A stretch of DNA of 64,000 nt from an uncultured Bacteroidales bacterium (lineage in GTDB: Bacteria > Bacteroidota > Bacteroidia > Bacteroidales > JAADJA01). The stretch spans positions 1,011,336 to 1,075,335 of the forward strand of contig CAVVMO010000001.1 of the NCBI GenBank assembly GCA_963749345.1, written 5' to 3'. This document shows, in pieces, positions 45,954 through 64,000 of this stretch. The first letter of the stretch is position 1, and each line of letters starts with the position of its first letter. A model generated the notes under the pieces. It saw only the letters and a list, made by a program, of their open reading frames with translations. It did no database searches and was not told where the DNA came from. A program made the position numbers and the translations under genes.

Positions 45954-46415
45954 ATGGCTAATACCCATACCCAACTGTATGTTCATTATGTTTTTGCTGT
46001 ACAGGACCGATTATGCCTCATCAATAATAAATGGCAGGATAACCTATACAAGTATATAAATGGTATTATTGATCAACAAGGACATAAGTTGTATGTGATA
46101 AACGGCATGAACGATCATATTCACATTTTAATAAGCATGACCCCAAAACAGGCTCCTTCCGATTTAATGTATCATTTGAAAAGAAGTTCATCATTGTGGA
46201 TAAACCAAAGCCGGCTATCGGCAGGGAAGTTTTCGTGGCAAGAGGGTTTTGGAGCCTTTTCTCTTGGGAAATCACAATTGCCCGAAAAAATAAAATACAT
46301 TGAAGACCAACAGCAGCACCATAAAAAAGAATCCTTTAGAGAAGAATACCTGAAGTTTCTTACAGAGAATGATATCGAATATGATGAACGCTACATTTTC
46401 AAGCCTGTTGAATAA
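45954..46415 (+). CDS. REP-associated tyrosine transposase (RAYT) / IS200-like Y1 transposase
   Basis: 153-aa ORF with an HUH motif (DHIHILIS) and the C-terminal YIEDQQQHH block typical of Bacteroidota IS200-like/RAYT proteins. Confidence 0.8.
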   Translation: MANTHTQLYVHYVFAVQDRLCLINNKWQDNLYKYINGIIDQQGHKLYVINGMNDHIHILISMTPKQAPSDLMYHLKRSSSLWINQSRLSAGKFSWQEGFGAFSLGKSQLPEKIKYIEDQQQHHKKESFREEYLKFLTENDIEYDERYIFKPVE

Positions 46416-46706: not shown

Positions 46707-49091
46707 ATGGCTCAGCCTTGTATTCATTGTGGGGAAGATTGTGGAAACTATCCGGTAATGTGGAATGATAAACCCTTTTGTTGCAATGGATGCAAAACCG
46801 TTTACCAGATCCTGAATGAAAAAGACCTCAAGCAATATTATGAAATTGCACCCATGCCGGGCATCAGGGTTGAAACCCAGGAGCAGGGAGAAAAATACGC
46901 CTATCTCGATCTTGATGAGATCAAAACCAAATTACTCGATTTCTCGGATGGAGGGATCAGCAAAATTACCTTCTTTGTTCCAGCCATTCATTGCGCTTCC
47001 TGCATTTGGCTGCTCGAACACCTCAGTATATTAAATCCTTCCATCACCCAATCCTTTGTTAATTTTCCAAAGAAAGAAGTCGTCATTAATTTTAAAGATA
47101 ATGAAATAACCCTTCGGGAAATTGTTGAATTGCTGGCTTCTATTCACTACATACCTGAAATAACCCTTGACCATCTCCAAAAAAGAAAAAAAACAAAAGG
47201 AAACAAGCAACTCATATTAAAGATAGGCATCACAGGCTTCGTGCTCATGAATGTGATGATGTATAATTTTCCCGAATACCTGCCGGGCGGGGAGTTACTC
47301 GAACCAGGATTTAAAAAGTTTTTTGGCTGGCTGAGTCTTATATTATCCATTCCTGTTGTTGTTTATTGCGCCAATGATTATTTCTTATCTTCCGTTAAAA
47401 GCCTCCGTCACAAAATCATCAGCATCGACCTGCCTATTGCTTTAGGAATATTAGCGCTTTTCCTTCAGAGTGCTTTTGACATTGTAACTGAGCAGGGAAC
47501 CGGTTACCTCGATTCCCTTTCAGGGCTTGTTTTTTTTATGCTGGTCGGAAAATGGTACCAGGGTAAAACTTACCAGGCACTATCGTTCGAGCGGGATTAT
47601 AAATCCTATTTTCCGGTGGCTGTAACTAAAATTGAACACGGGAAAGAATTTGTCATACCTCTTAATGAACTCAAAACCGGCGATCATATCCTCATCCGCA
47701 ATAAGGAGCTAATACCCGCTGATTCAAAGATTGTCGCGGGTGATGGTAATATTGATTATAGTTTTGTTACCGGCGAATCGCTTCCGGTTCGGAAGAACAA
47801 AGGGGATACGGTTTTTGCAGGCGGACGGCAGGCAGGAAGTTCAGTTGAACTGGAAATCATAAAAGTAGTGGAACAAAGCTATTTAACCCAGCTATGGAAC
47901 CAGGACAACAAAAGTGGCAAAGATGATCCGGGGATGAAAAGGATCATTGACGGGGTCAGTCAGTATTTCACTGTCATAATCCTTATTATCGCCGTAGCCG
48001 CAGGTATTTACTGGTTGTTCAACGACCCGTCCAAAGCTATCTTTGCTTTTACTTCGGTGTTGATTGTAGCCTGTCCGTGTGCCCTTGCTCTTACCCTGCC
48101 TTTTACCTTCGGGAGTACCATGCGTTATTTTGGACGGAACGGTTTCTACCTGAAAAAAACCCAGGTTGTTGAAGAGCTTTTCAAGGCCAACACCATTGTA
48201 TTTGACAAAACAGGTACCATCACCCATACCAAATCTATGGAAATTGATTTTGTTGGGCAATCACTTACAACGGACCAGATACGAATGATCAAATCCCTCG
48301 TCAGGCATTCAACCCATCCTTTAAGCGCTGCACTGTTTCAAAAGCTCGACGGAGATCAATATTATTCGGTGGATCATTTTAAGGAAATCCCTGGACTTGG
48401 CATTACGGGTGAAATAAATGGAGTAAAGATCAATGTGGGTTCACACAAGTTTGTCACCGGGAAGGAAGATGAAGAAAAAGGTCTTAAAACCCAGGTCTAT
48501 ATTTTTATAGGTGATAAGGTTCTCGGCTACTTCCAGCTTGAGAACAGTTACCGCAAAGGACTCAAAGAAATGATCACCCGCTTTTCCAAAAAATACGACC
48601 TCCATTTGTTAACAGGCGACAATGAAGCTGAAAAGACAAACCTTTTGCCATTGTTTCTGGTGGAAGACCGCATCCATTTTAACCAGTCACCCACCGACAA
48701 GCTGGCTTATGTAAAAAACCTTAAGAGTCAGGGCAAAAAAGTTTTGATGATCGGCGACGGGCTGAATGATGCCGGCGCTCTCAACGAAAGCAATGTGGGC
48801 ATCACCATTGCCGATGATGTGTATCATTTCTCCCCTGCCTGCGATGCCATCCTCGAATCATCAGGATTTGGTAAGCTCGAAAAATTTATCCGATTTACCC
48901 ACACCAGCATGAACATTGCCTATATCAGTTTCACGCTTTCTTTCATCTACAATGTTTTTGGCCTCTGGTTCGCGGTTCAGGGGTTGCTAACACCCATCTT
49001 CGCTGCTATCCTTATGCCCATCAGTTCTGTTTCGGTTGTAGCTTTTGCTACCCTTTCGATTGCTTTCCTTTCAAAGAGATCGCTGAAATAA
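46707..49091 (+). CDS. ccoI: Heavy-metal (copper) translocating P-type ATPase, CcoI/FixI type
   Basis: 794-aa ORF. The N-terminal Cys box is CIHCGEDCG...FCCNGCKTVYQIL. It also has CPC (VACPCALAL), DKTGT, HP (STHPLS) and GDGLNDAGAL. Confidence 0.85.
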   Translation: MAQPCIHCGEDCGNYPVMWNDKPFCCNGCKTVYQILNEKDLKQYYEIAPMPGIRVETQEQGEKYAYLDLDEIKTKLLDFSDGGISKITFFVPAIHCASCIWLLEHLSILNPSITQSFVNFPKKEVVINFKDNEITLREIVELLASIHYIPEITLDHLQKRKKTKGNKQLILKIGITGFVLMNVMMYNFPEYLPGGELLEPGFKKFFGWLSLILSIPVVVYCANDYFLSSVKSLRHKIISIDLPIALGILALFLQSAFDIVTEQGTGYLDSLSGLVFFMLVGKWYQGKTYQALSFERDYKSYFPVAVTKIEHGKEFVIPLNELKTGDHILIRNKELIPADSKIVAGDGNIDYSFVTGESLPVRKNKGDTVFAGGRQAGSSVELEIIKVVEQSYLTQLWNQDNKSGKDDPGMKRIIDGVSQYFTVIILIIAVAAGIYWLFNDPSKAIFAFTSVLIVACPCALALTLPFTFGSTMRYFGRNGFYLKKTQVVEELFKANTIVFDKTGTITHTKSMEIDFVGQSLTTDQIRMIKSLVRHSTHPLSAALFQKLDGDQYYSVDHFKEIPGLGITGEINGVKINVGSHKFVTGKEDEEKGLKTQVYIFIGDKVLGYFQLENSYRKGLKEMITRFSKKYDLHLLTGDNEAEKTNLLPLFLVEDRIHFNQSPTDKLAYVKNLKSQGKKVLMIGDGLNDAGALNESNVGITIADDVYHFSPACDAILESSGFGKLEKFIRFTHTSMNIAYISFTLSFIYNVFGLWFAVQGLLTPIFAAILMPISSVSVVAFATLSIAFLSKRSLK

Positions 49092-49377: not shown

Positions 49378-52300
49378 TTAATCTTTAATACAACGAACAA
49401 CAAAACCATGTACTTTGGTTTCATAAGATCGTCCATATCCTCCACTTGATTTGTTAAGGTTTCGATAAATTGATTGTGTTTCCGAAAATTCAGTCGAAGT
49501 CCAGATATAGGTTGATAATTTTATCTCAGCAAAAACAGGACCAATAGGACTTACTTGACGACTTAAACCTGCACCAAGGAAAGATAAACCACTTGAGTTT
49601 GTTGCTCCAGTATTTGGCTCATCCCAATGTAAATATCCAGTTTCTTTAATCATCCCGCCTACATTACTTCCTGCCGGCCAACCCCAAGAATAACATTCTA
49701 AAGTCGGATCAAGAAAAGTCATTAAAGTGCAATATTCGTCATCAGTTGGCATATGCCAGCCTTCAGGACAAATTCCAACATTACTCTCACCTGTACTATA
49801 TTGCATTGCTTCATTCCATTGATATAATCCGCCATAAATCAAACAATTATTTTCATTATTTTCATAACAATACTTTTGGATTATACCATCATCTGATTGA
49901 TCAATTGGGAAATCAATCATGGTTCCGATATTCATGTTTTCAGCCATCCAGCATTGAGTTCCTATTTGGACAGTTGAATAAGATTGGCCATCACGAATGT
50001 CAATAATTCCTTCACCACAAGGTACAGATGGAATTGTAACTGTTATAATAATACCTTTCCCACTATTAGGTTTCCACTTAATAATTTTATCATCAATTTC
50101 TACCTGGCTGTTCATATTATAGTCTCCATTATAGTAACCTGTTAAACCCAATTGGGTAAGCCATACATCATTTTTATCCAGGTTATTTATCAGTCCGTCG
50201 GAATTTCCATCAGCAGCGATCATACCCCAAACATTTGGAGTTAGCTGACTTTGCGAATGAGAACCGCCAAGACCAGTGTTTGAAGAAACTGTAAAATCAT
50301 AATTATAAATACCGGCTGATCCTGTAATAGGAAAAGAAGATATAATCGGCAAATGATTCCGATGAATGACCCTCAGATAAAAATTTTCCGGCGGTAATTC
50401 AGGAAAATCTAGAGGAGAGGTTCCGTCAATATCCCTTACGACTCCATCATTAAATACAAATGCAGCTTTTCGGCTTATTGCAACATAATTTGTATCATTG
50501 CCTGAGATTAATTTTTGAAGTATTTCAATAAGCACCCAGTCGATAATATTAACGGATGGGATATTTATTACAGATTCATTTCCCAGGTATTGCCATGGCG
50601 CTGAATTATATGGCTGATCTAACGGTAAATATCCTAATGCATTTAAGAAGTTTGACATTTGACCGCTGAAATATGGCCCCTCAAGAAAAACTTTAATATT
50701 TATTGCTTTTGAAAGGGTGGTAAATGTATACGGACCTACCCATGCACTATTGCCATAGTTATTACTACAATTAGCTCTAACATAAAAATCATATTCAGTG
50801 TTTGCTAATAAGTTATTATAGTTGTATGGATTAGATGAAATATTGGATGCTGTTGGCACACCTGTTGGTATGAAACCAGCAGTGTCCAATTCAATTTCCC
50901 ATGTTGCAGCACTTCCGTTCTCTATCCAACCTAAGTTTGCAGAATAATGAGTTATGTTGGTAACAAACAAGTTAGAAGGTTCGGGACAAATACCTTCATC
51001 AACTGAAATGTTGTCAATAAATAGGTCAGAGCCAAAACCGGATATTCCATTACACTTTATTAAAATATTATCCCCAAAAGAAGAAAGATCAATAATTCCT
51101 GAAGAAATAAAGCTACCAGGTATCTGGTATGCTGCACCATCATTTGAATTAAAGTCCGGACCTCCAAGCGACCAAACTTTCGACCAACTAAAAGCATTGT
51201 CATCTGAAACAAAAACTTCTAAAGAATCATTCAATAACGTAGGATAGGGTATGTGAGACCAGAAAAATTCAAGTGAAGGAGTTTCTAGAGCTGATATATC
51301 AATAGTGTTTGTTATCATTAAACAATTATTGTTTTGATTGACAGACCAGAAGTTTGCTAATGCACTTCCTTGGGTAGAGGAAGGGGCATAATGCATCCAA
51401 CAAAAGGACCCTCCACTGAGGTCGAAACATAGTGGTGGCCAGGTAGAAAATGTTTCATAAAATGGTGCTATGAAAGAAGGGCCTTTGGTTGAAAATGACT
51501 TTGGTCCCGACCAAAAACTGGTTTCCTCCTCAGTGCAGACGGACCTAACATAAAAATCATAATTTGTACATGAAGTCAAATTTTCATAATTATATGAATT
51601 TGATTGCACACCGGTAACTGTTGGGATTCCTGTAGGAATAAAACCTATAGGTCCAAATTCTATATCCCATGATGTAGCTGAACCGGTTTCTAACCATTGA
51701 AGAGTTGCTGTTGTTTCCATCACATCAATGGCATCAAGTTCAATTGGAGCAGAACATGAATAAAAAGAAATATTGTCTAAAAGAAGATAAACTTGATTTG
51801 GTTCGCTGTAACCGTGAAAACCGATAAAATATACACCGCTGGTAGTGGGTGTAATTGTGCCAGTTCCATCATGCCATACATTGCTATATTGAATTGCTGC
51901 ATCATTGAAAATGGGACCATTAGTCATTGCTACTGAATTCGCTTCTAATCCCCACTTTACTTCTAATTTCTCAAAATAAATTGAAGAATTGTTTGTATAT
52001 TTAAAATTCAAAGTATATGTTGTTCCAGATGAAAGCCAGAATCCTGGGGTAAAGAACCAGTCATCCATTGCCAGGGAGGAATTATATCTCACATACAAAA
52101 CATTCGGTAAAGAAGGGGGATTTAATGCATTTGCATATGTTTGCCAGTAATAGGGATCTATATTGGTATTTTCATAGGTTGTGCAATTCGGTAACGCAGG
52201 TGCTGTTACCGAATCGAAATTCTGGAAATAGGGAAGCGAGACTATCTGACATATCGTAATGAAAGTCCATACAGGTCCATTTGTTGTAAGAGTACCATTG

Positions 52301-53735: not shown

Positions 53736-53981
53736 TTAAATGCTTATTTCACCTCCACCATAAATCCCCTTCAAGCTTGCATCCGGATTGTAAACCATGA
53801 GGAATGTATTACCGGCAGCGCCAAGCTGGGCAGGGGTAAATTCATCTTCTTTGCCGGGCTGAAGTTCGGGGGCGGTTTCAGGTACAGGATTATCTGCCTT
53901 GGCAGCAGTGTAGAAGCGCAACGGGGCATCACCAGTGTTTTCGACGGTAAATACTGAGGCTGCAGTAAACCCGTCTTTCAT
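53736..53981 (-). CDS. Small acidic orphan protein (81 aa from the ATG at 53981), GC-rich; possibly the 3' remnant of a larger gene
   Basis: Sequence MKDGFTAASVFTVENTGDAPLRFYTAAKADNPVPETAPELQPGKEDEFTPAQLGAAGNTFLMVYNPDASLKGIYGGGEISI. By hand count, 122 of 246 nt are G+C (about 50%), against visibly AT-richer flanks. The supplied ORF extends to 54233 through AT-rich sequence. Confidence 0.4.
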   Translation of the reverse strand: MKDGFTAASVFTVENTGDAPLRFYTAAKADNPVPETAPELQPGKEDEFTPAQLGAAGNTFLMVYNPDASLKGIYGGGEISI

Positions 53982-54269
53982 GATGATCACCTTTGCGGCA
54001 GAATTTACGGAACCGGAGAATGCAAGGACACATTGAGGGTTTTTTATAGTATTGCAGATATTAAAATTATGGGTTATCAATGTTTTAAATTTGATGCAAG
54101 TAAAATTATAATCGAAAAATTGCTTAAAAACAATATGATCAAACTGGTGTAGGAAGGGCATGAATTTTTTGAGGAAATGATGTGTTTGGATTAGGAAACT
54201 ATTGATTATTTTTAAACCCGGTAAATAAATCATGATTCTGAATCCATTTATTTAAATAAAAATCATTCG

Positions 54270-56369
54270 GTGACGGAAGGAAAACATAATTCGGGAAGTT
54301 GGCCTATACTTATCAATCCTTATATATTGGCATTGGTGGCTTCCTTAATAATTATTTTGCTTCTGCCAATGGACTTCCCTAAATATAAAATTGAAATAAT
54401 TGATAACCAGGTGCATCAAAGTAATAATTTCAGGATTTTTGATGATCTGGATAATAATGGTTATAGCGATGAAATAAACCTTGCGAACAACTTTATCGGC
54501 TCAACCGGATTATCCGTCAGATTTAATCCACACAACATAATAGAACAATGGAATTTTCAGGGAAGCAATATTTTTGTTTCTAAGGAAAACTTAATTATTG
54601 GTGACTTTGATAACAATTTGATTAAAGAAATATATGGTTTTACAATTTCAAACGACAGTATTTTTCTAAACTGGGTACCAAATATTACAGGTAAGGAAGT
54701 CAAACAGAGATTCATCACTAAGGTGCGTATAAAAAAAGGTAAATGCGACCCGGTTAATATTCCTCTTGAAATGGACGACCTGGATGGAGATGGTTACAAG
54801 GAATTGCTTTTTGGCATCAATACCGGATTTTCAGTTCAGCCTAGAAATGTTTTTGCATATAACATTGTAAGCGACTCATTGAAACAAAGCCCCAAAAGTG
54901 CAGCTGCATTCATAGATATATTTCAGTACGATGTTACCGGTGATGGCTTGAATGAAATATTACTTTATACTTATTCTCCTGAAAATCTGCACGACACAGG
55001 ATATCAATACCACGACAGCAGCGCCTGGATGATGGTTCTTGACAGAAAACTGGAATATTTATTTCCCCCAATTGAGATCAAAGGACGCTGGGGAACAGTC
55101 ATGCCGATAATTTTCAGAAATACAGGTTTACAGCTGATCTTCGGAGCAATGCATTATTGGCGCGACACTAATCATATTGGAATGAAAATGATGCTGCTTG
55201 ACACAATAGGCAACATTATAAAAGAACAGGTTTGTGACCCAGTGCCACCCAATGCAACAATTAAATTTTTCCAAACCTTTAGCAAAAGAGGAGATTACGC
55301 AGTAATTTCAACCGGAAATGAAATTCGTATTTATGATCAGTTCCTTGATCTTGATAGGGAAATTCCCTTAAACCAAAGGATATCTTGTCAGCATCAAATG
55401 GATCTGGATTTGGATGGCAGCAATGAAATACTATTGTATGCTACCGATAATAAATTGAGAATTTTCAGAGAAAATATGAAGCATCCTGCGATAATAGATA
55501 TAAGTAATATGGCCGATGAATATAACACTGCATTTTCATTAGTTAAAGTACCCGGCTTGCTGCCATTAATTTCGATTTTTTCTAATAATAAATGGTATTT
55601 GATTTCGTATGCCCTTAATCATATGTTTTATTGGCGGTGGGCAATCTATGCTGCCATATATTTAAGTGTTTTAGTATTTACTTTATTCGTACAGAAAATC
55701 CAGCGTATTCAACTCCAGAGCAAGTACAATACCGAAAAGAAAATTACTGAGTTGCAGCTAAAGATTATAAAAAACCAGCTCGACCCGCATTTCGTACTCA
55801 ATGCCATTAATTCAATCACCAGTTCGGTTTCCAACCAAAAAAAGGAAGAAGCTACTGAACATTTGCAGCAATTCTCTCAAATGTACCGGTCGCTGGTTTT
55901 GTCATCGGACAAGATCACACGCACATTGACTGAGGAGATTGCTTTTACTGAAAACTACCTGAAAATGGAGCAGTTCAGGTTTAGCATGAAGTTTCAATAT
56001 TCCATTGTTATTGATCCGGCCATTGATACAACAATTGAAGTCCCCAAGATGATCGTTCAGTCGTACACTGAGAATGCCATTAAGCATGGATTGGCAGGCA
56101 GAAAGGAAGGAGGAGGCATACTTGAAATAATGGCTAAGCAATTTGACCAAAAGTTAATCCTTACCATCAAAGACAATGGAGGTGGAAGAAAAGAATCTGC
56201 ACAGGCAGGATCTACTTCAACCGGCAAAGGCGTTGAAATGATGAACAACCTCTACGATCTGTACTATAAAATAACCAACAGAAAAATTACGGGTGAAATA
56301 GTGGATTTATATGACGATGAAGAGAAATCAGCGGGAACAAGCGTTATCGTAACAATTCCAATTAATTAA
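54270..56369 (+). CDS. Sensor histidine kinase, LytS/His_kinase (PF06580-like) type, with an extracytoplasmic FG-GAP/VCBS-like beta-propeller sensor domain
   Basis: 699-aa ORF with a GTG start and a first TM segment. The ~400-aa external region carries Ca-binding-type loops (DDLDNNGYSDEINL, GDFDNNLIKEIY, DDLDGDGYKELLF, DVTGDGLNEILLY, DLDLDGSNEILLY). A second TM segment (WAIYAAIYLSVLVFTLFV) follows, then the H-box (LKIIKNQLDPHFVLNAINSI) and the ATPase domain (ENAIKHG, DNGGG, STGKGVEMMN). Confidence 0.8.
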   Translation: MTEGKHNSGSWPILINPYILALVASLIIILLLPMDFPKYKIEIIDNQVHQSNNFRIFDDLDNNGYSDEINLANNFIGSTGLSVRFNPHNIIEQWNFQGSNIFVSKENLIIGDFDNNLIKEIYGFTISNDSIFLNWVPNITGKEVKQRFITKVRIKKGKCDPVNIPLEMDDLDGDGYKELLFGINTGFSVQPRNVFAYNIVSDSLKQSPKSAAAFIDIFQYDVTGDGLNEILLYTYSPENLHDTGYQYHDSSAWMMVLDRKLEYLFPPIEIKGRWGTVMPIIFRNTGLQLIFGAMHYWRDTNHIGMKMMLLDTIGNIIKEQVCDPVPPNATIKFFQTFSKRGDYAVISTGNEIRIYDQFLDLDREIPLNQRISCQHQMDLDLDGSNEILLYATDNKLRIFRENMKHPAIIDISNMADEYNTAFSLVKVPGLLPLISIFSNNKWYLISYALNHMFYWRWAIYAAIYLSVLVFTLFVQKIQRIQLQSKYNTEKKITELQLKIIKNQLDPHFVLNAINSITSSVSNQKKEEATEHLQQFSQMYRSLVLSSDKITRTLTEEIAFTENYLKMEQFRFSMKFQYSIVIDPAIDTTIEVPKMIVQSYTENAIKHGLAGRKEGGGILEIMAKQFDQKLILTIKDNGGGRKESAQAGSTSTGKGVEMMNNLYDLYYKITNRKITGEIVDLYDDEEKSAGTSVIVTIPIN

Positions 56370-56377
56370 ACTGAAAT

Positions 56378-57127
56378 ATGCAAAACCGGCAACTAAGGAC
56401 AATTATAGTAGATGATGAGGAAAAGGCAATAAATAATCTGGAAACCCTATTGAATAATTTCCCGCAGGTTCAGATCATAGATAAATCAACAGATCCTGAA
56501 AAGGCATTGGGTAAAATACTGCTCCAAAAACCCGATTTACTATTTATGGATATTCAAATGCCGGATAAAACAGGGTTTGAAATCGTATCAGAAGTTTATC
56601 GGAGTGGATTAAGACCCGACATTATATTTGTAACAGCTTTTGATAAGTATGCCATCACTGCCATTCGTTATGCTGCATTCGATTACCTGCTGAAACCAGT
56701 TAACAAGGAAGAACTTAAAGATGCGTTGGAACGGTTACTGAAAAAAACAACTGAAACAGATAAGGAGGAACAGATTAAAATACTTATCGAGAAAACGAGT
56801 AGACATAAAATCAAATTCTCAAATGCAGGCGGATTCATTCTTATTAAACCCGAGGATATTATTTACATCGAGGCCGACTGGAATTATTCCGAAATTTATT
56901 TCAGCAAGGAAATAAAGGAAGTCGTTACAATGAATATCGGAAGTGTTGAAGAACTATTACCAAAAGAAGATTTTTACAGGATCAATCGTTCAATAATCAT
57001 TAATATTAACTACCTTTCGAGGGTAATTCGTAAAAAGCTTTTGGCCATACTTATTAAAGATGGCCAGGAATACCAGTTCAAAATACCAATATTAAAAATC
57101 CGGGGACTGGAAAGGTTTTTAGCTTAA
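56378..57127 (+). CDS. LytTR-family (LytR/AlgR) response regulator
   Basis: 249-aa ORF. The receiver domain reads IIVDDEEKAI...DLLFMDIQMPDKTGFE...FVTAFDKYA, and the LytTR domain reads IIYIEADWNYSEIYF...FYRINRSIIININYL. It starts 8 nt after the kinase stop codon. Confidence 0.9.
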   Translation: MQNRQLRTIIVDDEEKAINNLETLLNNFPQVQIIDKSTDPEKALGKILLQKPDLLFMDIQMPDKTGFEIVSEVYRSGLRPDIIFVTAFDKYAITAIRYAAFDYLLKPVNKEELKDALERLLKKTTETDKEEQIKILIEKTSRHKIKFSNAGGFILIKPEDIIYIEADWNYSEIYFSKEIKEVVTMNIGSVEELLPKEDFYRINRSIIININYLSRVIRKKLLAILIKDGQEYQFKIPILKIRGLERFLA

Positions 57128-57322
57128 GGAATAATATTAATCTATCAGATCCTGTAACTTCCCTAGCAGCCGCAAGTTTATAACTTTTATCAATAAGTAA
57201 CTTATTTTCCTTTATTTAAAACAAATTATGTTTTGGTTAATAATTATTTTTCAAATCACTAATTCTTAATTGAATGATGATTTGTTAGATTGTTAAAATC
57301 TAATTTTTGGAAGACTTTTTAT

Positions 57323-57358
57323 GAAAAAAAAGAGACTACCTTTGTCAGGTAATCTCTT
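57323..57358 (-). terminator. Strong Rho-independent terminator immediately 3' of the tRNA-like gene
   Basis: On the minus strand, AAGAGATTACC-tgacaaa-GGTAGTCTCTT forms an 11-bp stem with one G-U pair, followed by TTTTTTTT. Confidence 0.75.
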
Positions 57359-57362
57359 GTTA

Positions 57363-57435
57363 GCAGGGAGGAGGGGCTCGAACCCTCATCAGTCTAGTTA
57401 GTTCTAGAATATCTATCCAGTTGACTACTTCCTGC
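57363..57435 (-). tRNA. tRNA-like sequence, non-canonical (probable tRNA pseudogene or relic, or an atypical tRNA-derived RNA)
   Basis: Minus-strand sequence: GCAGGAAGTAGTCAACTGGATAGATATTCTAGAACTAACTAGACTGATGAGGGTTCGAGCCCCTCCTCCCTGC. The T arm is perfect (GAGGG-TTCGAGC-CCCTC), and U8/A9/A14/GG-like positions are present if G1 is treated as a -1 base. The acceptor helix is 8 bp with one A-C mismatch and the D stem has only 3 bp. The only good anticodon stem (TCTAG/CTAGA) encloses a 6-nt loop, AACTAA, which contains CTA. No CCA is encoded. Confidence 0.45.
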
Positions 57436-57440
57436 TTGTT

Positions 57441-57465
57441 AGGACTGCAGCAACAGTCCTTTTTT
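57441..57465 (+). terminator. Hairpin plus T-run (plus-strand terminator-like), 5 nt from the 5' end of the tRNA-like gene
   Basis: AGGACTG-cagcaa-CAGTCCT followed by TTTTT. Confidence 0.5.
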
Positions 57466-58129
57466 AATCCAAAACAAAAGTACTATCAGTCAAAGGTACA
57501 ATGCAACTTCATTTATAAACATTTGATTGTTGTTAAAATGCTATCCCCTTGAATTCAACTGAAGTAGATTGCGGAAAGATGATTTAGTAACAATGTATTG
57601 ATAAAAAAATGAGGCTTTCGTATAATTGAATAATGATATACCAAAGTCAGGCAGCCAAGGCCTTCCATGAATTTTTGTTTGGACAAGAATGTAATGACTA
57701 TAATTAAATTTTTTCAAAAATCAATAAAAACATATAAAATTTAATGACGGGGTTATTTAATAGTTCCTTTTTTATTCGTAATAAAATCTCCCCGTGTCAC
57801 CGCAAGTTTGTAATTTGTTGCAAGAAATACCAGCGCCTGTGTATGTCACATAGGATCCCCCCGCTGGCGCAAGCATCTCCCCCTTTAACATTAAAATATT
57901 TCCTCATTAAATTCAAATATTCTTAAATTTGCCTTACTCAAAAGCAGGAAATGAAGCAACGAACCTTTTCATACTTTTTAATTTCACTAAGGGAAAATGT
58001 AAATTTTATTCCCGTTTACACACCTGTATGGAACAAAAACGGGAATAAAGTTCATGTTATAGTAACGTAAACGTTCATTGTAAAAAAAGACAACAGACAA
58101 AAATAAATTAACCATTTAATTGTATAATT

Positions 58130-58930
58130 ATGAAAAAGAACTACAGAATTTGGATTTACTCATTAACATTAGTGGGTTTTATATTAGTTCTTGCAATTGG
58201 TTGTAAGAAAGATGAATCGCCATCAAAGAAAACTCCATTAATCACCTGGGCAAATCCTGAAGATATTGTTTATGGTACCTTGCTAAGCGCGACCCAGCTA
58301 AACGCCACAGCTGATGTAGAAGGTACCTTTTCTTACACTCCCCAGATTGGCACATTACTGGATGCAGGCGCTAATCAGGTTTTGAAAGTGTCCTTTACGC
58401 CAGCCGATGCCGAAGCCAACGATACCGCAAGCAAAACAGTGAAAATTAATGTACTTTATATAGGCGATAGCTATAGAGGTGGTAAAGTAGCCTATATTTT
58501 ACAAGCAGGAGACCCAGGCTATGCAGCTGCAGAAGCACACGGTTTAATAGCCGCACCAGGCGACCAAAGTACAGGCATACAATGGTATAATGGAAGCTAT
58601 ACAACAACAGGAGCAACTGCAACAGCATTAGGCACGGGGAATGACAACACAGCCACTATTGTTGCCAGTCAGGGAGCAGGCAGCTATGCAGCGAAATTGT
58701 GTTCTGATTTGGTATTAGGTGGCTATTCCGACTGGTTTTTACCCAGTAAAGATGAGTTAAATAAGCTCTACATAAACAGAGCAGCGATTGGTGGTTTTGC
58801 TAATGAAAACTATTGGAGTTCCAGCGAGGCCGGCACCAACGCCGCATGGAAGCAGAGCTTCACCACTGGCATGCAGGGTGGCCTCTATAAAAACAACGAC
58901 TACTATGTGCGCTCGGTTCGGGCTTTTTAA
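58130..58930 (+). CDS. Lipoprotein with an Ig-like N-terminal region and a C-terminal DUF1566 (Lcl C-terminal-like) domain
   Basis: 266-aa ORF with lipobox LAIGC. The C-terminus (GGYSDWFLPSKDELNKLY...NYWSSSE...AWKQSF...YYVRSVRAF) fits the DUF1566 pattern. Confidence 0.75.
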   Translation: MKKNYRIWIYSLTLVGFILVLAIGCKKDESPSKKTPLITWANPEDIVYGTLLSATQLNATADVEGTFSYTPQIGTLLDAGANQVLKVSFTPADAEANDTASKTVKINVLYIGDSYRGGKVAYILQAGDPGYAAAEAHGLIAAPGDQSTGIQWYNGSYTTTGATATALGTGNDNTATIVASQGAGSYAAKLCSDLVLGGYSDWFLPSKDELNKLYINRAAIGGFANENYWSSSEAGTNAAWKQSFTTGMQGGLYKNNDYYVRSVRAF

Positions 58931-59245: not shown

Positions 59246-59344
59246 CTTGTCTGATTATTATTTCCATTCCTCTGCTGATTTTAGATTATTGTGTTTGTCC
59301 ATGACTGAAATAGGTTGACCAAAAATAAGATAAAAAGTCAACTT

Positions 59345-59767
59345 ATGGAAACAAAGCAAAAAGGGAAAAAGGGGTTAAGGCTCCGACGTCATTTCAGTGT
59401 AGGGATAAAGAAACAAGTAGTAAGGGATATTGAAAAAGGAAAGTGTACTGTATTGGAAGCCAGTCGTGAGTTGGGAGTAAGTTTTCAAACTGTGTACCTC
59501 TGGCTTTATAAGTATAGTTTATATTTGCAAAAAAACAAGATACTTATAGTGGAAGATAAAAGCGAAGCCTATCGCAGCAAAGACCTTGAGAAACGGATAT
59601 TAGAATTGGAAGCTGTTTTGGGGCGCAAGCAAATGGAAATTGATTTGCTCAACAAAGTAATTGAACTGGCCAACGGAGAATACAAGACAGATTTAAAAAA
59701 AAGCATGTTAAAGAAGCCCTTGGATGGTTCCGGCTCAATAAAGGGATCAAGCACTTCTACAAGATGA
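59345..59767 (+). CDS. IS3 transposase OrfA (HTH plus leucine-zipper region)
   Basis: METKQKGKKGLRLRRHFSVGIKKQVVRDIEKGKCTVLEASRELGVSFQTVYLWLYKY..., followed by a coiled-coil region. The ATG at 59345 is preferred over the TTG at 59315, which lies inside IRL. Confidence 0.8.
   Translation: METKQKGKKGLRLRRHFSVGIKKQVVRDIEKGKCTVLEASRELGVSFQTVYLWLYKYSLYLQKNKILIVEDKSEAYRSKDLEKRILELEAVLGRKQMEIDLLNKVIELANGEYKTDLKKSMLKKPLDGSGSIKGSSTSTR
59695..59701 (+). promoter_or_regulatory. Programmed -1 ribosomal frameshift heptamer A_AAA_AAA in orfA
   Basis: The orfA frame reads TTA AAA AAA AGC. The -1 frame is open from here (KKHVKEALGWFRLNKGIKHFYK) into the orfB ATG at 59764, which would give an OrfAB fusion. 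Confidence 0.6.
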
Positions 59768-60696
59768 AAGAGTTATATTCGATAGCCAACATAAGTAAGC
59801 AGGCACTGTGGAAGCATGACAGGCGGCAGGAAACAGTCACAGCAATCACAGGGCAGATGGTAGATATAATGGAAGACATCAGACAACGACATAAACGTAT
59901 GGGATGCAGGCGGATGTACTATGCGACTCAGGGAACTTTACCTGTAGGCAGGGATCTGTTCGAGAAAATCGGTTTTGCCAATGGTTTCAAGTTGCGGCGT
60001 AAACCAAATACAATAAAAACCACCTGGGGTCAAAGAGTAGAGGTTCATCCCAACCTGATCGAAGGCAAAATACTCACTGACATCAACCAGGTGTGGCAAA
60101 GCGACATTTTCTACATCAAGATAGAAGGAAAAGACTATTACGGAGTAAGCATAGAAGATGTATACTCAAGAAAAATGCTATCCATGCACATTTCAAAAAG
60201 CCTGCAGGCAGAACAAGTTGAGAACGCCTTAAAAAAGGCAATCAAAGTAAGAAAGAACATGGATTTAACCGGCTGTATCTTTCATTCGGACCGTGGCAGC
60301 CAATACATCAGTACCCGGATAAAAAAACTCTTGCGCGACACACAAATGCAAATCAGTATGTGCAAAATACCGCAGGAGAATGCCTATGTCGAACGTGTGC
60401 AGGGAACCCTCAAGTACGAATACTTGTATGAATTTGATTTAACCGAAAAGAATTTGCCTAACACGATTCGTAAAATACTGGAATATTATAACAAGGAGCG
60501 CCCTCATAGTAACTTAAAGATGAATAATCCTGAAAGATTTGAATTAGAAGTTGAAAAGCTTGTTGAAAAACAACGTCCAAAACTCCAGATATACAAATGG
60601 ACTCATGGGGTATCAACAAAAGAAGATGATATTAACAAAAAAGAAAAAAGTAGCAAAAAAGAAAAAATGAATACAATAAAAACAAATAGTATTTAA
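59764..60696 (+). CDS. IS3 transposase OrfB (rve/DDE integrase core)
   Basis: 310-aa ORF containing WQSDIFYI (D), FHSDRGSQYIS (D) and ENAYVERVQGTLKYE (E). Its ATG overlaps the orfA stop (ATGA). Confidence 0.9.
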   Translation: MKELYSIANISKQALWKHDRRQETVTAITGQMVDIMEDIRQRHKRMGCRRMYYATQGTLPVGRDLFEKIGFANGFKLRRKPNTIKTTWGQRVEVHPNLIEGKILTDINQVWQSDIFYIKIEGKDYYGVSIEDVYSRKMLSMHISKSLQAEQVENALKKAIKVRKNMDLTGCIFHSDRGSQYISTRIKKLLRDTQMQISMCKIPQENAYVERVQGTLKYEYLYEFDLTEKNLPNTIRKILEYYNKERPHSNLKMNNPERFELEVEKLVEKQRPKLQIYKWTHGVSTKEDDINKKEKSSKKEKMNTIKTNSI

Positions 60697-60805
60697 TTGA
60701 AAAAAGTCAACCTATTTCAGGCAAGTACAGTTAATCAGATTTCATATATCCTATTTCGGATTTCAAAATTTATTTTACTTTTGCCACGTATTCAGGTCGA
60801 AAAAT

Positions 60806-62431
60806 ATGCGTCGTTTACTTACATTGCTTGCAGTGTTATTGTGTTTTGTTGGTTTTACCCAAACCGATACGGCAACTGTCATGTATTACAATGTTCTTAA
60901 CTATCCAGGTAGCACCGGGTCGCGGGTTCAGTATTTCAGAAAAATTAATCAATACATCAAACCCGATTTCGTTTTGATTACCGAATTGGTTTCTAACGCC
61001 GGAGCAGTCACCCTTCTGCAGGATGGCTTAAACGTTTTTGGCGAAACAAAGTATCAAAAAGCAACTTTCATTGATGGCCCCGATACCGACAACATGCTTT
61101 TCTACAATAGTGATAAGTTTACCCTCTATTCACAGGATACCATCGGAACCTTGCCCCGCAGGATGAATGAATATGTTCTCTATTACAACTTACAGCAACC
61201 GGCAGAAGATACTGTATTTTTCTATTTCTATGTGGCCCATCTGAAAGCCAGTACTGGGTTTGAATCTGAGCGCCTGGAAGAAGTCATGAAGTTTAAAAAT
61301 TATGTCAACAGCAAACTCAACATTGAAAACATGATTTTCGGTGGCGACCTGAACTTTTACAATGCTTCATCTGAGCCGGCTTACTGGGCCCTTATCAACG
61401 ATGGATTATACCCCCTCAATGATGTTTTGCCCGCAGGCGACTGGCACGAAGATCCTGCTTATGCATCTATTCATACCCAAAGTCCCAGGACAGCATCATT
61501 TGGCGGTGGGGCAAATGGCGGAATGGATGACCGTTTTGATTTTATGTTATTCACGGATGACATTCTTTCAGGATCAAACAATTTAAGTTACATTAATAAT
61601 TCCATTACTGCATTTGGTAACGATGGCCAGCATTTTAATGTGGCGCTTACTGATTCCCCGGTAAATACTTCACTTCCCGATTCCATAATTCAGGCTCTGT
61701 ACTATATGTCCGACCACCTGCCCGTTTTCAGCAAATTTATTATCCAGCCTGATGTTGTTTTTCAGAATTACGAACTTTCCTTAAAGGTATTTCTGGAAGG
61801 CCCTTTCAATGGTTCAGAAATGAGTACCGGCATAAATCCTGTTTTGCCACTAAGCGATCCCTATGTTGGAGCGCCCTGGTACGCAACCGACAGTGAACCT
61901 GTTGTCAGCATTCCAAACTCTGATATTGTCGATTGGGTTTTAGCTGAACTAAGGGATGCTCCCGATGCTGTATCTGCCGGTTCTGGAACAATCATCAGCC
62001 GGCAAACAGGATTTTTATTAAGGGATGGTACAATAAAAGGATTGGATGGCATGTCAAATCTACAATTCAACAATTCAATAATTCATCAATTATTTCTTGT
62101 CATCTGGCACCGAAATCACCTCGGAGTGATGAGCGCTTTCCCTCTCAGTTTGACAGGTAATTTCTTTAATTACGACTTTACAACCGGCACAGACAAAGCC
62201 TACCTCAACGGACAGAAACAGCTGGCTCCCGGAATTTGGGGGATGATTGCCGGCGATTGCGATGCCAACAGTGTGGTGAATGAAAATGACAAATCCTTAA
62301 TCTGGAAAAATCAAGGGGGGAATGCAGGTTATCTGCCTGGCGATCTTAATTTCAACGGGCAGGCTAACAATCCGGATAAAAACGAATTTATAATTATCAA
62401 CTTTCTGAATCACTCCAAAATTCCTCAGTAG
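60806..62431 (+). CDS. Secreted endonuclease/exonuclease/phosphatase (EEP) fold protein with a C-terminal dockerin-like module shared with the 1405-aa protein
   Basis: 541-aa ORF with a signal peptide. EEP-type blocks are VMYYNVLNYPG, FVLITEL, YVAHLKAS, IFGGDLNF, GGMDDRFDFML and MSDHLPVF. The C-terminal ~215 aa (nt ~61772-62428) begin KVFLEGPF and contain DCDANSVVNEND and DLNFNGQANNPD. Confidence 0.75.
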   Translation: MRRLLTLLAVLLCFVGFTQTDTATVMYYNVLNYPGSTGSRVQYFRKINQYIKPDFVLITELVSNAGAVTLLQDGLNVFGETKYQKATFIDGPDTDNMLFYNSDKFTLYSQDTIGTLPRRMNEYVLYYNLQQPAEDTVFFYFYVAHLKASTGFESERLEEVMKFKNYVNSKLNIENMIFGGDLNFYNASSEPAYWALINDGLYPLNDVLPAGDWHEDPAYASIHTQSPRTASFGGGANGGMDDRFDFMLFTDDILSGSNNLSYINNSITAFGNDGQHFNVALTDSPVNTSLPDSIIQALYYMSDHLPVFSKFIIQPDVVFQNYELSLKVFLEGPFNGSEMSTGINPVLPLSDPYVGAPWYATDSEPVVSIPNSDIVDWVLAELRDAPDAVSAGSGTIISRQTGFLLRDGTIKGLDGMSNLQFNNSIIHQLFLVIWHRNHLGVMSAFPLSLTGNFFNYDFTTGTDKAYLNGQKQLAPGIWGMIAGDCDANSVVNENDKSLIWKNQGGNAGYLPGDLNFNGQANNPDKNEFIIINFLNHSKIPQ

Positions 62432-62550: not shown

Positions 62551-62784
62551 ATGTCTGTCATTTATTTTCTTATTGGGGTTGGAGTTTTAGTAGCCGGAGG
62601 ATTTTTGTTTGCCTTTATCTGGGCTGTAAAATCAGGGCAATATGATGATGACTACACCCCTTCCGTTCGAATCCTGTTCGACAATTTTAAAACTGACAAC
62701 CAAGAGCCGGAGAAGCAAAATTCAGATCAACCGGTAAATGGAAAAAGCAAAGAGATGGAAAAATCCAATAATAACAAATCCTGA
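62551..62784 (+). CDS. ccoS: cbb3-type cytochrome oxidase assembly protein CcoS
   Basis: 77-aa ORF: MSVIYFLIGVGVLVAGGFLFAFIWAVKSGQYDDDYTPSVRILFDN, followed by a K/N/E-rich tail. Confidence 0.85.
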   Translation: MSVIYFLIGVGVLVAGGFLFAFIWAVKSGQYDDDYTPSVRILFDNFKTDNQEPEKQNSDQPVNGKSKEMEKSNNNKS

Positions 62785-62788
62785 ATTT

Positions 62789-64000
62789 ATGGCAATAGAG
62801 AAATTTACGTACGACAACAAAATTGCAAAGTACTTCGCAAACGCAACCATTGTATGGGGTGTTGTAGCTTTCCTGGTGGGATTAATAGCGGCTTTAGAGC
62901 TGATTTTCCCCGCCTTTAGCCTGAACCTTCAATACATTACCTTTGGCAGACTGAGACCTTTGCACACCAATGCTGCTATTTTTGCATTCGTTGGTAATGG
63001 CATCTTTGCAGCAATTTATTATTCAACCCCCCGGCTGCTTAAGACTCCAATGTTCAGCAAAACATTGAGTTTAATTAATTTCTGGGGATGGCAGCTGATC
63101 ATTGTCCTGGCAGCGGTTACCTTGCTTGCAGGGTTTACCACAGGAAAAGAATATGCCGAACTGGAATGGCCGGTCGATATTCTGATCGCTATCGTCTGGG
63201 TGATTTTCGGCTGGAACCTTATCGGCACCATGCTGCAACGGCGGACCAAACACATTTATGTGGCGATTTGGTTTTATATAGCCACGTTTGTCACGGTAGC
63301 CGTTCTCCACATTGTGAATTCTATTGAATTGCCGGTGTCTGTTTTAAAAAGTTATCCGGTGTATGCCGGCGTTCAGGACGCCCTTGTGCAATGGTGGTAT
63401 GGCCATAATGCGGTAGCGTTTTTCCTCACAACCCCGGTTTTGGGTTTAATGTACTATTTTATTCCCAAAGCTGCAAACCGTCCGGTTTATTCTTATAAGC
63501 TTTCGATCATTCACTTCTGGTCTTTGATCTTTCTTTATATCTGGGCAGGGCCGCATCACCTGTTATATTCCTCCACTCCTGATTGGGCTCAGGCATTGGG
63601 TGTTGTGTTTTCAATAGCTCTTATTGCACCGTCCTGGGGAGGTATGATCAATGGTTTGCTAACCCTGAGAGGAGCCTGGGATAAAGTCCGTGAGGACCCG
63701 GTTTTAAAAATGTTTGTTGTTGGCATCACAGCTTATGGTATGTCGACTTTTGAAGGTCCTTTGCTTTCATTAAAAAGCGTAAATGCCATCAGCCATTTTA
63801 CTGATTGGACCATTGCACATGTGCACATTGGAACTTTGGGCTGGAACGGGATGCTGATGTTCGGGATGCTTTACTGGTTGTATCCGCGTTTTTACAAAGT
63901 AAAATTATATTCAAAATCATGGGCCAATACCCATTTCTGGTTGGCTACATTAGGCATGCTTTTCTTTGCAATTCCACTCTATTTTGCTGGATTTACACAG
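62789..64000 (+). CDS. ccoN: cbb3-type cytochrome c oxidase subunit I (CcoN or fused CcoNO), N-terminal part; gene runs off the window end
   Basis: Own translation from the ATG at 62789: MAIEKFTYDNKIAKYF...RLRPLHTNAAIFAFVGN...VQWWYGHNAVAFFLTTP...GPHHLLYS...IAHVHIGTLGWNG... There is no stop up to position 64000. It is not in the ORF track because it is open-ended. Confidence 0.9.
   Translation, partial: MAIEKFTYDNKIAKYFANATIVWGVVAFLVGLIAALELIFPAFSLNLQYITFGRLRPLHTNAAIFAFVGNGIFAAIYYSTPRLLKTPMFSKTLSLINFWGWQLIIVLAAVTLLAGFTTGKEYAELEWPVDILIAIVWVIFGWNLIGTMLQRRTKHIYVAIWFYIATFVTVAVLHIVNSIELPVSVLKSYPVYAGVQDALVQWWYGHNAVAFFLTTPVLGLMYYFIPKAANRPVYSYKLSIIHFWSLIFLYIWAGPHHLLYSSTPDWAQALGVVFSIALIAPSWGGMINGLLTLRGAWDKVREDPVLKMFVVGITAYGMSTFEGPLLSLKSVNAISHFTDWTIAHVHIGTLGWNGMLMFGMLYWLYPRFYKVKLYSKSWANTHFWLATLGMLFFAIPLYFAGFTQ

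Follow-up and report, generated by a model that had tools for sequence, protein, structure and literature searches.

The question raised by this locus is why a giant adhesin/lectin-like protein and a protein with an endonuclease/exonuclease/phosphatase (EEP) fold should carry the same module of about 220 residues, and what that module would bind. Both genes lie in a 64-kb stretch of DNA from an uncultured Bacteroidales bacterium, the whole of which is called the window here. BLASTP comparison of the 1405-aa and 541-aa open reading frames, with composition-based statistics, gives a single strong alignment, in which residues 965–1170 of the giant protein match residues 324–525 of the EEP protein over 207 columns (39% identity, 58% positives, E = 1e-41). 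The sharing of a module by the two proteins, claimed in an earlier note made from the sequence alone, is thereby borne out. The motifs listed in that note (KVFLEGPY/F, DWVL.E, HRNHL, NYDFT, WGMIA.D and four Asp/Asn-rich loops) are all present. The copy in the giant gene had rightly been placed on the minus strand, but at 50080–50710, which is out of frame; the actual segment is 50050–50703. By tblastn there are exactly two copies in the window. Since their identity is only 39%, they are old paralogues and not the products of a recent duplication. The features are listed in Table 1.

Table 1. Positions of the two module copies, their carrier genes and the intervening features in the 64-kb window
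Feature	Position	Strand	Basis or remark
Gene for giant secreted protein, 1405 aa	49378–53595	−	ORF list, translation, Pfam/TIGR matches
FISUMP (Fib_succ_major) domain after copy 1	49381–50007	−	PF09603, TIGR02145
Module copy 1	50050–50703	−	Giant protein residues 965–1182; internal, followed by FISUMP; family HMM 292 bits
Copy 1, dockerin-like half, two loop–helix motifs	50050–50220	−	AF2 helices; PDB profile matches mostly dockerins
Copy 1, putative Ca-loop 2, DYNMNSQVEIDD	50089–50124	−	Family-conserved Asp
Copy 1, putative Ca-loop 1, DGNSDGLINNLD	50176–50211	−	Positions 1, 3, 5, 9 and 12 fit the EF-hand/dockerin pattern
Copy 1, β-sandwich half, ~160 aa	50221–50703	−	AF2 strands; motifs FLEGP, QPY..PW.Y.G.E, DWVL.E.R and HRNH near-invariant
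Small ORF	53736–54233	−	Probably over-called
LytTR two-component pair	54270–57127		Between the two module genes
Lcl_C lipoprotein gene	58130–58930		Between the two module genes
IS3 element	59296–60729		Between the two module genes
Gene for secreted protein with EEP-fold domain and C-terminal module, 541 aa	60806–62431	+	ORF; homologues
EEP domain	60866–61771	+	Weak window matches, homologue profile; SDHLPV motif at 61709–61726
Module copy 2	61775–62428	+	EEP protein residues 324–541; extreme C-terminus, ends ...SKIPQ; family HMM 301 bits
Copy 2, putative Ca-loop 1, DCDANSVVNEND	62255–62290	+	Family conservation
Copy 2, putative Ca-loop 2, DLNFNGQANNPD	62342–62377	+	Family conservation

The giant protein has a type I signal peptide, an unannotated N-terminal region, two fn3 domains (Pfam, E = 1.2e-12), the module and a C-terminal FISUMP domain, in that order. 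The FISUMP domain is above the curated cut-offs of PF09603 (E = 6.6e-28; 98.7 bits, cut-off 33.9) and TIGR02145 (E = 1.9e-38; 132.9 bits, cut-off 41.65). The order module-then-FISUMP recurs in eight of the ten scanned relatives with an internal module. The EEP domain of the second carrier scores below threshold when taken from the window alone (Exo_endo_phos2, E = 0.19; MnuA, E = 6e-7). A profile of its homologues matches DNase gamma (E = 8e-5) and nocturnin (E = 0.02), and the homologue at locus L056, 55% identical to the window protein, reaches 31.7 bits with PF03372, for which the cut-off is 24.5. Designed PPR repeat proteins, returned by phmmer as PDB matches of the EEP domain, were set aside as spurious and the profile search was used instead. 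The EEP-plus-module architecture is also found at loci L047 and L056.

The two module genes had been described as lying on either side of an IS3 element. The IS3 is indeed between them but is not the sole intervening element, as the small ORF, the LytTR pair and the Lcl_C gene are there too. Nothing evident connects it with the module.

AF2 predicts each copy as a confident single globule (pLDDT 92.8 and pTM 0.91 for copy 1; pLDDT 95.8 and pTM 0.92 for copy 2, in which the C-terminal tail is ordered). In both models, a β-sandwich of about 160 residues is followed by two loop–helix motifs, with a helix after each loop; in copy 1 the strands fall within residues 2–164 and the helices span residues 177–187 and 206–216. 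When the copy 1 model is compared with the PDB by Foldseek, the nine best matches are all chains containing a type II X-module–dockerin (XDoc), including 4u3s_B (E = 5e-4), 2b59_B, 5m0y_B, 4wi0_B, 5g5d_B, 3kcp_A and 4fl4, and the next matches have E > 0.1. For copy 2, XDoc dyads are eight of the nine top matches. The target-normalised TM-scores to XDoc chains of about 156 residues are 0.52–0.63 for copy 1 and 0.52–0.68 for both copies, and the alignments of both cover 170–230 columns. A TM-score of 0.52–0.63 is too high for a dockerin of about 60 residues alone. The similarity of fold is moderate, with modest Foldseek E-values of 5e-4 to 0.1 and rmsd values of 5–8 Å. The models thus support a match to X-module–dockerin dyads, and in them the Ig-like β-sandwich and the dockerin form one predicted structural unit, as in type II XDoc. 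Profile searches of PDB sequences return dockerins as 14 of 18 matches for the whole module and 19 of 28 for its C-terminal 63 residues, at marginal E-values in both cases; outside the dockerin part, they find no sequence similarity between the β-sandwich and any PDB X-module.

The C-terminal part had been called dockerin type I. It is dockerin-like, having two 12-residue EF-hand-type loops, a helix after each and Ca-ligand positions that are conserved throughout the family. The type I label fails, since PF00404 (Dockerin_1) misses both window copies, at E ≤ 1 and at E ≤ 10, and the whole unit of about 220 residues resembles a type II XDoc dyad. PF00404 matches five of 32 family members, none significantly (best E = 0.036), and an hhalign comparison with one Pfam-annotated dockerin gives a probability of 47% with a single repeat aligned. 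The module and type I dockerins have in common the two loops of about 12 residues, with Asp or Asn at positions 1, 3, 5, 9 and 12. Unlike a type I dockerin, the module always has a conserved β-sandwich in front. Among 205 family copies, the segment D-x-N-x-D-G-x-[IV]-N-N-x-D-K-N-D-x-W is duplicated at a distance of 29 residues, and the Asp residues at loop positions 1 and 12 are conserved at 96% (D167), 99% (D178), 98% (D196) and 98% (D207). We infer that the two loops bind calcium. To our knowledge, the DKNDxW signature of the helix does not obviously match the pattern of recognition residues in type I dockerins.

The closest structural match to both copies is type II XDoc, as found in C. thermocellum ScaA/CipA and CipB and in A. 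cellulolyticus ScaA (2b59, 5k39, 5m0y, 4u3s); the dyad of clostridial scaffoldins has been described (PMC5141474). In XDoc and in our module, a β-sandwich is fused straight to a dockerin of two calcium loop–helix motifs to give one rigid unit, and this unit stands at the C-terminus of multi-cohesin scaffoldins, for the module in relatives. In both, the segments are duplicated, from which two symmetric faces for binding may be supposed. The differences are considerable. An X-module is expected to have about 100 residues (98 in XDoc) in seven strands, whereas the sandwich of the module has about 160 and includes a conserved, irregular arm of about 45. The sequence of the module escapes PF00404. 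Besides scaffoldins, its carriers include enzymes and adhesins, its host is a diderm, its anchoring scaffolds carry a type IX secretion (T9SS) CTD and its cargo is mostly not carbohydrate-active. In clostridial cellulosomes the anchors are SLH modules. Across the 205 copies, the sandwich residues W39, Y41, E45, D57-W58 and H116-R117-N118-H119 are all at least 90% conserved; we know of no such strong conservation noted for cellulosomal X-modules. The sandwich exceeds the cellulosomal X-module by about 60 residues and is much better conserved (HRNH, DW, FLEGP), a hint that it has a further function or a different one.

The module had also been thought uncommon. On the contrary, a profile search at E ≤ 1e-3 finds the family in 16,169 clusters at 50% identity, although no Pfam or NCBIfam model covers it and we found no description of it in the literature, where the nearest precedent is in Cloacimonadota. 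The carriers are mostly large secreted proteins of uncultured Bacteroidales with the module at the extreme C-terminus; this is its position in 130 of the 148 top representatives and in 92 of 105 ORFs of genomic loci. Up to five copies may stand in tandem. A type I signal peptide without a lipobox is the rule among the carriers, and a T9SS sorting domain almost never occurs in them. The passenger domains include Peptidase_C25, GEVED, MAM, β-helix, LamG and the "choice-of-anchor" domains Q, J and D, and the module is often paired with lectin-like FISUMP domains.

If the module is a plug, cohesins are expected somewhere. No cohesin of the window is detected by HMMs built from 3 and from 18 seeds (best E = 2.5). 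An ORF of 165 aa that lies upstream of the giant gene had been a candidate, but its N-terminal half looks non-coding and it shows no similarity to cohesins, and it was rejected. With the same HMMs, only one of 79 module-centred loci, L056, has a cohesin neighbour. There, a secreted cohesin of 167 aa (PF00963, 29.8 bits) lies directly upstream of the EEP+LTD+PKD+module homologue of the window gene in that MAG. A search of the indexed protein database with a cohesin profile gives only six matches, which are uninformative. Among 194 module proteins, 11 carry one to four N-terminal cohesins, and PF00963 is above its cut-off in six of the eight cohesin-module proteins tested. These relatives are scaffoldin-like, of the form (cohesin-Ig)x3–4 plus module, whereas the two proteins of the window are of the cargo type. 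At L083, more genes with the module come after a scaffoldin gene, that of a C10 peptidase among them. In cohesin-centred metagenome loci, 12 cohesin proteins end in the module and about 27, by a count of C-terminal motifs, have T9SS-CTD-like tails; Por_Secre_tail was confirmed by Pfam in all seven of the latter that were tested. The two scaffoldin classes, ending in the module or in a T9SS type A CTD, share 53% identity over 900 aa, the C-terminal domain being their only difference. A cohesin-like partner encoded outside the window, as the earlier note suggested, is thus plausible from the cohesins that are fused to the module or adjoin it in relatives, although none is detectable in the window itself. 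Such fusion and neighbourhood give indirect support to the idea that the module may bind a cohesin in a calcium-dependent manner.

We propose, as the rather more probable reading, that the module is a divergent docking unit of the XDoc type, by which cargo is plugged onto cohesin scaffolds encoded elsewhere in the genome. An enlarged Ig/transthyretin-like β-sandwich of about 160 aa would pack on a divergent dockerin to give a compact dyad of about 220 residues, the calcium-dependent counterpart of the cellulosomal type II XDoc. In this window, the adhesin/lectin-like giant protein and the EEP nuclease/phosphodiesterase would be the docked carriers. The four-cohesin scaffolds of related uncultured Bacteroidales, ending in the module or in a T9SS type A sorting domain, would be fixed to the cell surface by the latter. 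The cargo would be non-cellulolytic: C25, C10 and C1 peptidases, nucleases, β-helix proteins, lectin domains and adhesins. The system would therefore follow the logic of the cellulosome, with a cohesin scaffold that is anchored, cargo that docks and scaffolds that act as adaptors. The carriers are presumably located at the cell surface, and a route across the outer membrane must be supposed for them. It is tempting, if rather speculative, to imagine that cargo with a Sec signal and without a T9SS sorting domain binds scaffoldins in the periplasm and crosses the outer membrane folded, carried piggy-back by the scaffoldin CTD through the T9SS, which would give branched surface assemblies of proteases, nucleases and adhesins; we consider this improbable.

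That the similarity of the two copies is due to chance, to low complexity or to a recent IS3-associated duplication without functional meaning can be taken as already refuted. The Asn/Asp-rich loops could inflate similarity and the IS3 does separate the two genes, but the E-value over 207 columns was obtained with composition-based statistics, there are thousands of homologues with conserved positions, 39% identity indicates an ancient duplication, and the EEP-plus-module architecture is kept in other MAGs without an IS at that position. The module might instead be a C-terminal export or anchoring signal, an alternative to the T9SS CTD that would be recognised not by cohesins but by a machinery for secretion or attachment; we regard this as unlikely. 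The T9SS type A CTD and the module do occupy the same niche, as the last domain of large secreted multidomain Bacteroidota proteins, and they are interchangeable on the otherwise 53%-identical scaffoldins. The prevalent C-terminal position, the type I signal peptides of carriers that almost never have a T9SS CTD, and the passengers typical of T9SS cargo also favour an export role, as do the "choice-of-anchor" domains, so named for preceding alternative C-terminal anchoring signals. However, the extreme C-terminal position that is obligatory for a T9SS CTD is not kept by the module, which is internal in the giant protein and in 18 of the 148 representatives (about 12%) and may be in tandem. It is also three times larger than a T9SS CTD, and its fold and calcium-loop helices point to docking. 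Neither window protein matches TIGR04183 or PF18962, and homology of the β-sandwich to T9SS CTDs was rejected, as the family alignment gave an hhalign probability of 0.3% against 12 of them. One family member, P0053, has the module alongside a genuine T9SS CTD. The terminal QVPx was rejected as a free-C-terminus sorting signal, the tail being predicted as ordered; because internal copies keep QVP, it marks a domain boundary.

It is likewise doubtful that the module is a calcium-dependent lectin or a binder of the cell envelope (e.g., of LPS or a capsular glycan) that tethers its carriers directly and uses the loops in sugar binding. Such a role would fit the conserved aromatic, His and acidic residues of the sandwich half, the frequent pairing with FISUMP and the usual absence of a partner gene nearby. 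The transthyretin-like and CBM-like Foldseek matches of the β-sandwich, which would also fit, are weak and non-significant in both copies (E > 0.07, TM < 0.3). Moreover, protein–protein docking predicts just such scaffoldin architectures, in which the module is repeatedly fused to tandem cohesins, and the DKNDxW helix residues after both loops are conserved as for a protein interface.

The docking reading has a precedent outside the Firmicutes. Cloacimonadota are diderm bacteria of the FCB group. For 'Ca. Stygibacter' of that phylum, a cellulosome-like system was inferred, with C-terminal dockerins on signal-peptide enzymes that include a C25 gingipain-like peptidase (Williams et al. 2021, PMC8542988). 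Those dockerins were found with standard InterPro models, and no β-sandwich of the X type was reported (PMC8542988). In contrast, the dyad described here escapes Pfam and has multiplied massively in Bacteroidales, and its scaffoldins have either a T9SS CTD or the module itself at their end.

If our proposal is true, cohesin–dockerin assembly is not confined to cellulolytic Firmicutes. A domain that occurs in more than 16,000 protein clusters, yet has no entry in present libraries, receives a name, a partner that can be tested and a connection with cohesin scaffolds anchored by the T9SS; how cargo lacking a T9SS signal leaves a diderm cell becomes a concrete question. Protein engineering could also gain an orthogonal docking pair from the module and its cohesins. 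For the environmental Bacteroidales lineage that carries it, the module would be a principal means, as yet without annotation, of organising peptidases, nucleases, lectins and adhesins.

The giant protein and the EEP protein share a module. Residues 965–1170 of the former align with residues 324–525 of the latter at 39% identity and 58% positives over 207 columns (BLASTP, E=1e-41), which bears out the sharing claimed in an earlier note; the minus-strand coordinates given there were out of frame and are corrected in the table. By tblastn, the window contains exactly two copies. Their 39% identity argues that they are old paralogues without connection to the IS3 element, and chance similarity or an IS artefact is refuted as the explanation. 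Outside the module, Pfam and NCBIfam models place two fn3 domains in the giant protein and a FISUMP domain at its C-terminus. The N-terminal domain of the EEP protein is EEP-like: library matches are weak for the window protein alone, a profile built from its homologues finds DNase gamma (E=8e-5) as well as nocturnin, and a 55%-identical homologue passes the PF03372 cut-off. The module itself has no Pfam or NCBIfam model.

AlphaFold2 models based on family alignments (pLDDT 92.8 and pTM 0.91 for copy 1; 95.8 and 0.92 for copy 2) have a ~160-residue beta-sandwich, including an irregular but highly conserved arm of ~45 residues, followed by two helices, with an Asp/Asn-rich loop ahead of each. 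In 205 module copies, the C-terminal part consists of a 17-residue segment that occurs twice, 29 residues apart, and reads D-x-N-x-D-G-x-[IV]-N-N-x-D-K-N-D-x-W, with Asp 96–99% conserved at loop positions 1 and 12; judged by its sequence, it fits the EF-hand/dockerin calcium-loop pattern. Where the earlier note spoke of dockerin type I or EF-hand-like loops, the loop pattern stands and the type I assignment is not supported, as Dockerin_1 has no match at E<=1 in either window protein. The sandwich carries near-invariant L-E-G-P, Q-P, P-W-x-Y-x-G-x-E, D-W, and H-R-N-H residues in the same copies, with H-R-N-H, D-W, F-L-E-G-P, and P-W-x-Y-x-G-x-E at least 90% conserved. This is far above expectation for a spacer-like X-module, and the residues may form a dockerin clasp, a second binding site, or a metal site. 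The terminal QVPx was considered as a free-end signal and rejected: it is predicted to be ordered and is kept in many internal copies, and therefore marks the domain end.

The nine best PDB matches of copy 1 are all chains containing the type II X-module–dockerin dyad (XDoc) of C. thermocellum and A. cellulolyticus scaffoldins (E 5e-4 to 1e-2, probability 1.0; later matches E>0.1), with TM 0.52–0.63 normalised to the ~156-residue XDoc chains. For copy 2, XDoc makes up eight of the nine top fold matches. Since a 60-residue dockerin alone could not raise the TM above ~0.4 when the target has 156 residues, the sandwich is aligned too. In XDoc, a seven-stranded X-module packs intimately against a dockerin made up of two calcium loop-helix motifs, and is reported to stabilise it and to help contact the cohesin (PMC5141474); that X-module has 98 residues, whereas our sandwich has ~160. 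Sequence profiles support the dockerin likeness only weakly. Dockerins are the majority of matches of the module profile to PDB sequences, but at E 0.003–1.7; Dockerin_1 matches 5 of 32 family members, all non-significantly, and hhalign against a Pfam-annotated dockerin gives 47% probability, covering one repeat.

The module had been called uncommon, a description that did not survive. An indexed search gave 46 relatives, nearly all of them proteins without a name from uncultured Bacteroidales, and when 1.84 billion cluster representatives were searched exhaustively with a profile, 16,169 proteins matched at E<=1e-3 (5,407 at E<=1e-30). Two narrow peptide patterns, run against GTDB species genomes, yielded 503 confirmed matches. 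Of the best 80, 79 come from Bacteroidales MAGs and one from a Chlorobiota MAG, and several single MAGs each supply 6 to 14 of those 80 loci. The window itself is Bacteroidales-like (its ATP synthase alpha is 81–86% identical to Bacteroidales MAG counterparts) and encodes a protein with ABC_transp_aux and DUF7088 domains, read as GldG-like.

The module is the last domain in 130 of 148 best representatives and in 92 of 105 ORFs of genomic loci; where it is internal, the next domain is FISUMP in 8 of 10 cases, an order that the giant protein shares. Passenger domains in 53 module proteins include FISUMP, beta-helix/NosD, cohesin, LamG, GEVED, PKD, LTD, FG-GAP, Peptidase_C25, C1, MAM, CotH, and 'choice-of-anchor' Q, J, and D. 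Of the 29 families matched, the 25 commonest do not include the T9SS C-terminal sorting domain (CTD), which leaves room for no more than one CTD carrier among the 53 proteins. Type I signal peptides occur in 112 of 194 module proteins, and a lipobox-like Cys in only 8. Recurrent among the first 46 relatives are proteins of ~296 aa (P0008, P0010, P0012, and others) with a signal peptide, a ~55-residue domain with motifs SWTLGE...TQGFQQP and no library match, and the module.

As the earlier note had suggested, a cohesin-like partner is not recognisable within the window (best E=2.5). Elsewhere, 11 of the 194 module proteins have one to four cohesins N-terminal to the module (Pfam Cohesin above cut-off in 6 of 8 tested), an arrangement whose domain order is that of a scaffoldin. 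With these cohesins as seeds, a metagenome scan gave 68 loci, in which 12 cohesin ORFs end in the module (L080–L088, for example, with four cohesin-Ig units plus module, ~1160 aa) and about 27, by motif count, have CTD-like C-termini; in seven of the latter tested, Cohesin was above cut-off in six and Por_Secre_tail in all. Module-ended and T9SS-ended scaffoldins are 53% identical over 900 residues, the last domain being the sole difference. At locus L056 (MAG CSMAG_450), a 167-aa stand-alone secreted cohesin (3005-3508; PF00963, 29.8 bits) lies directly upstream, at a distance of 219 bp, of an EEP+LTD+PKD+module homologue of the window EEP gene, and a T9SS-CTD beta-helix protein comes next. 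At L083, more module genes, a C10 peptidase among them, come after a scaffoldin that ends in the module.

Features of the window around the module genes
Feature	Positions	Strand	Remark
Ankyrin-repeat protein, 474 aa	43161-44585	minus	Ank_2 E=1e-52
IS200/IS605-type Y1 transposase	45954-46415	plus	second mobile element near giant gene
P-type ATPase	46707-49091	plus	ATPase-cat_bd; upstream of giant gene
Giant protein ORF, 1405 aa	49378-53595	minus	
Module copy 1	50050-50703		giant protein
H-R-N-H region, copy 1	50350-50364	minus	
165-aa ORF	53736-54233	minus	just upstream of giant gene
AT-rich gap, ~1 kb	57127-58130		31% GC vs 39% window
Lcl_C/DUF1566 lipoprotein	58130-58930	plus	LAIGC lipobox; between module genes
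IS3-family element	59296-60729		between giant and EEP genes
IS3 terminal inverted repeats	59296-59319, 60706-60729		24-nt, 88% complementary
IS3 orfA	59315-59767		
IS3 orfB	59764-60696		
EEP protein ORF, 541 aa	60806-62431	plus	
Module copy 2	61775-62428		EEP protein
H-R-N-H region, copy 2	62108-62122	plus	
Heme-copper oxidase subunit I	62738-64000	plus	runs past window end

The position upstream of the EEP gene holds IS3 in the window, ending 77 bp before the ATG, and the small cohesin gene in L056; no cohesin remnant is detectable there in the window. The oxidase (CcoN-like by eye) and the P-type ATPase (read as CcoI-like) set the module genes amid housekeeping respiratory genes. The ankyrin-repeat protein is unusual for a bacterial chromosome. 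The Lcl_C/DUF1566 domain of the lipoprotein is a lectin-like relative of the giant protein's FISUMP domain. The 165-aa ORF, without family match, looks over-called, its coding-like part being the last ~81 residues from an ATG near 53979. The gap has no ORF of at least 80 aa, and neither an Rfam family match nor a tRNA occurs anywhere in the window.

We lean towards the module being a divergent XDoc-type docking module that would plug the giant protein and the EEP enzyme onto cohesin scaffolds whose genes lie elsewhere. If the module were instead a new C-terminal domain for sorting or anchoring, used in place of the CTD, this would account for the shared niche and for the domain swap between the two, but it is unlikely given internal and tandem module copies, one relative that combines the module with a genuine CTD, and an hhalign probability of 0.3% between module and CTDs. 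The conserved His/Trp/Tyr cluster would suit a calcium-dependent glycan- or envelope-binding domain, a role that the scaffoldin architectures make equally doubtful.

Cohesin–dockerin modules are known outside cellulosomes, and rumen Bacteroidetes are reported to have dockerins (PMC6487960); in Cloacimonadota, dockerin enzymes and a cohesin scaffoldin with a conserved C-terminal surface-attachment domain have been inferred (PMC8542988). Our literature search found no description of a Pfam-invisible sandwich-plus-dockerin dyad, of its scale in Bacteroidales, or of paired module-terminated and T9SS-terminated scaffoldins.

Under the docking reading, some scaffolds would be fixed to the surface through T9SS, and the carriers plugged onto them would be the adhesin/lectin-like giant protein and the EEP enzyme. 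It is tempting to speculate that cargo with only a Sec signal is exported piggy-back on CTD-bearing scaffoldins. Tandem module arrays occur in the relatives P0050 (five copies), P0047 (three), and P0049 (two), and if the docking reading is true, these would be multivalent 'multi-plug' proteins.
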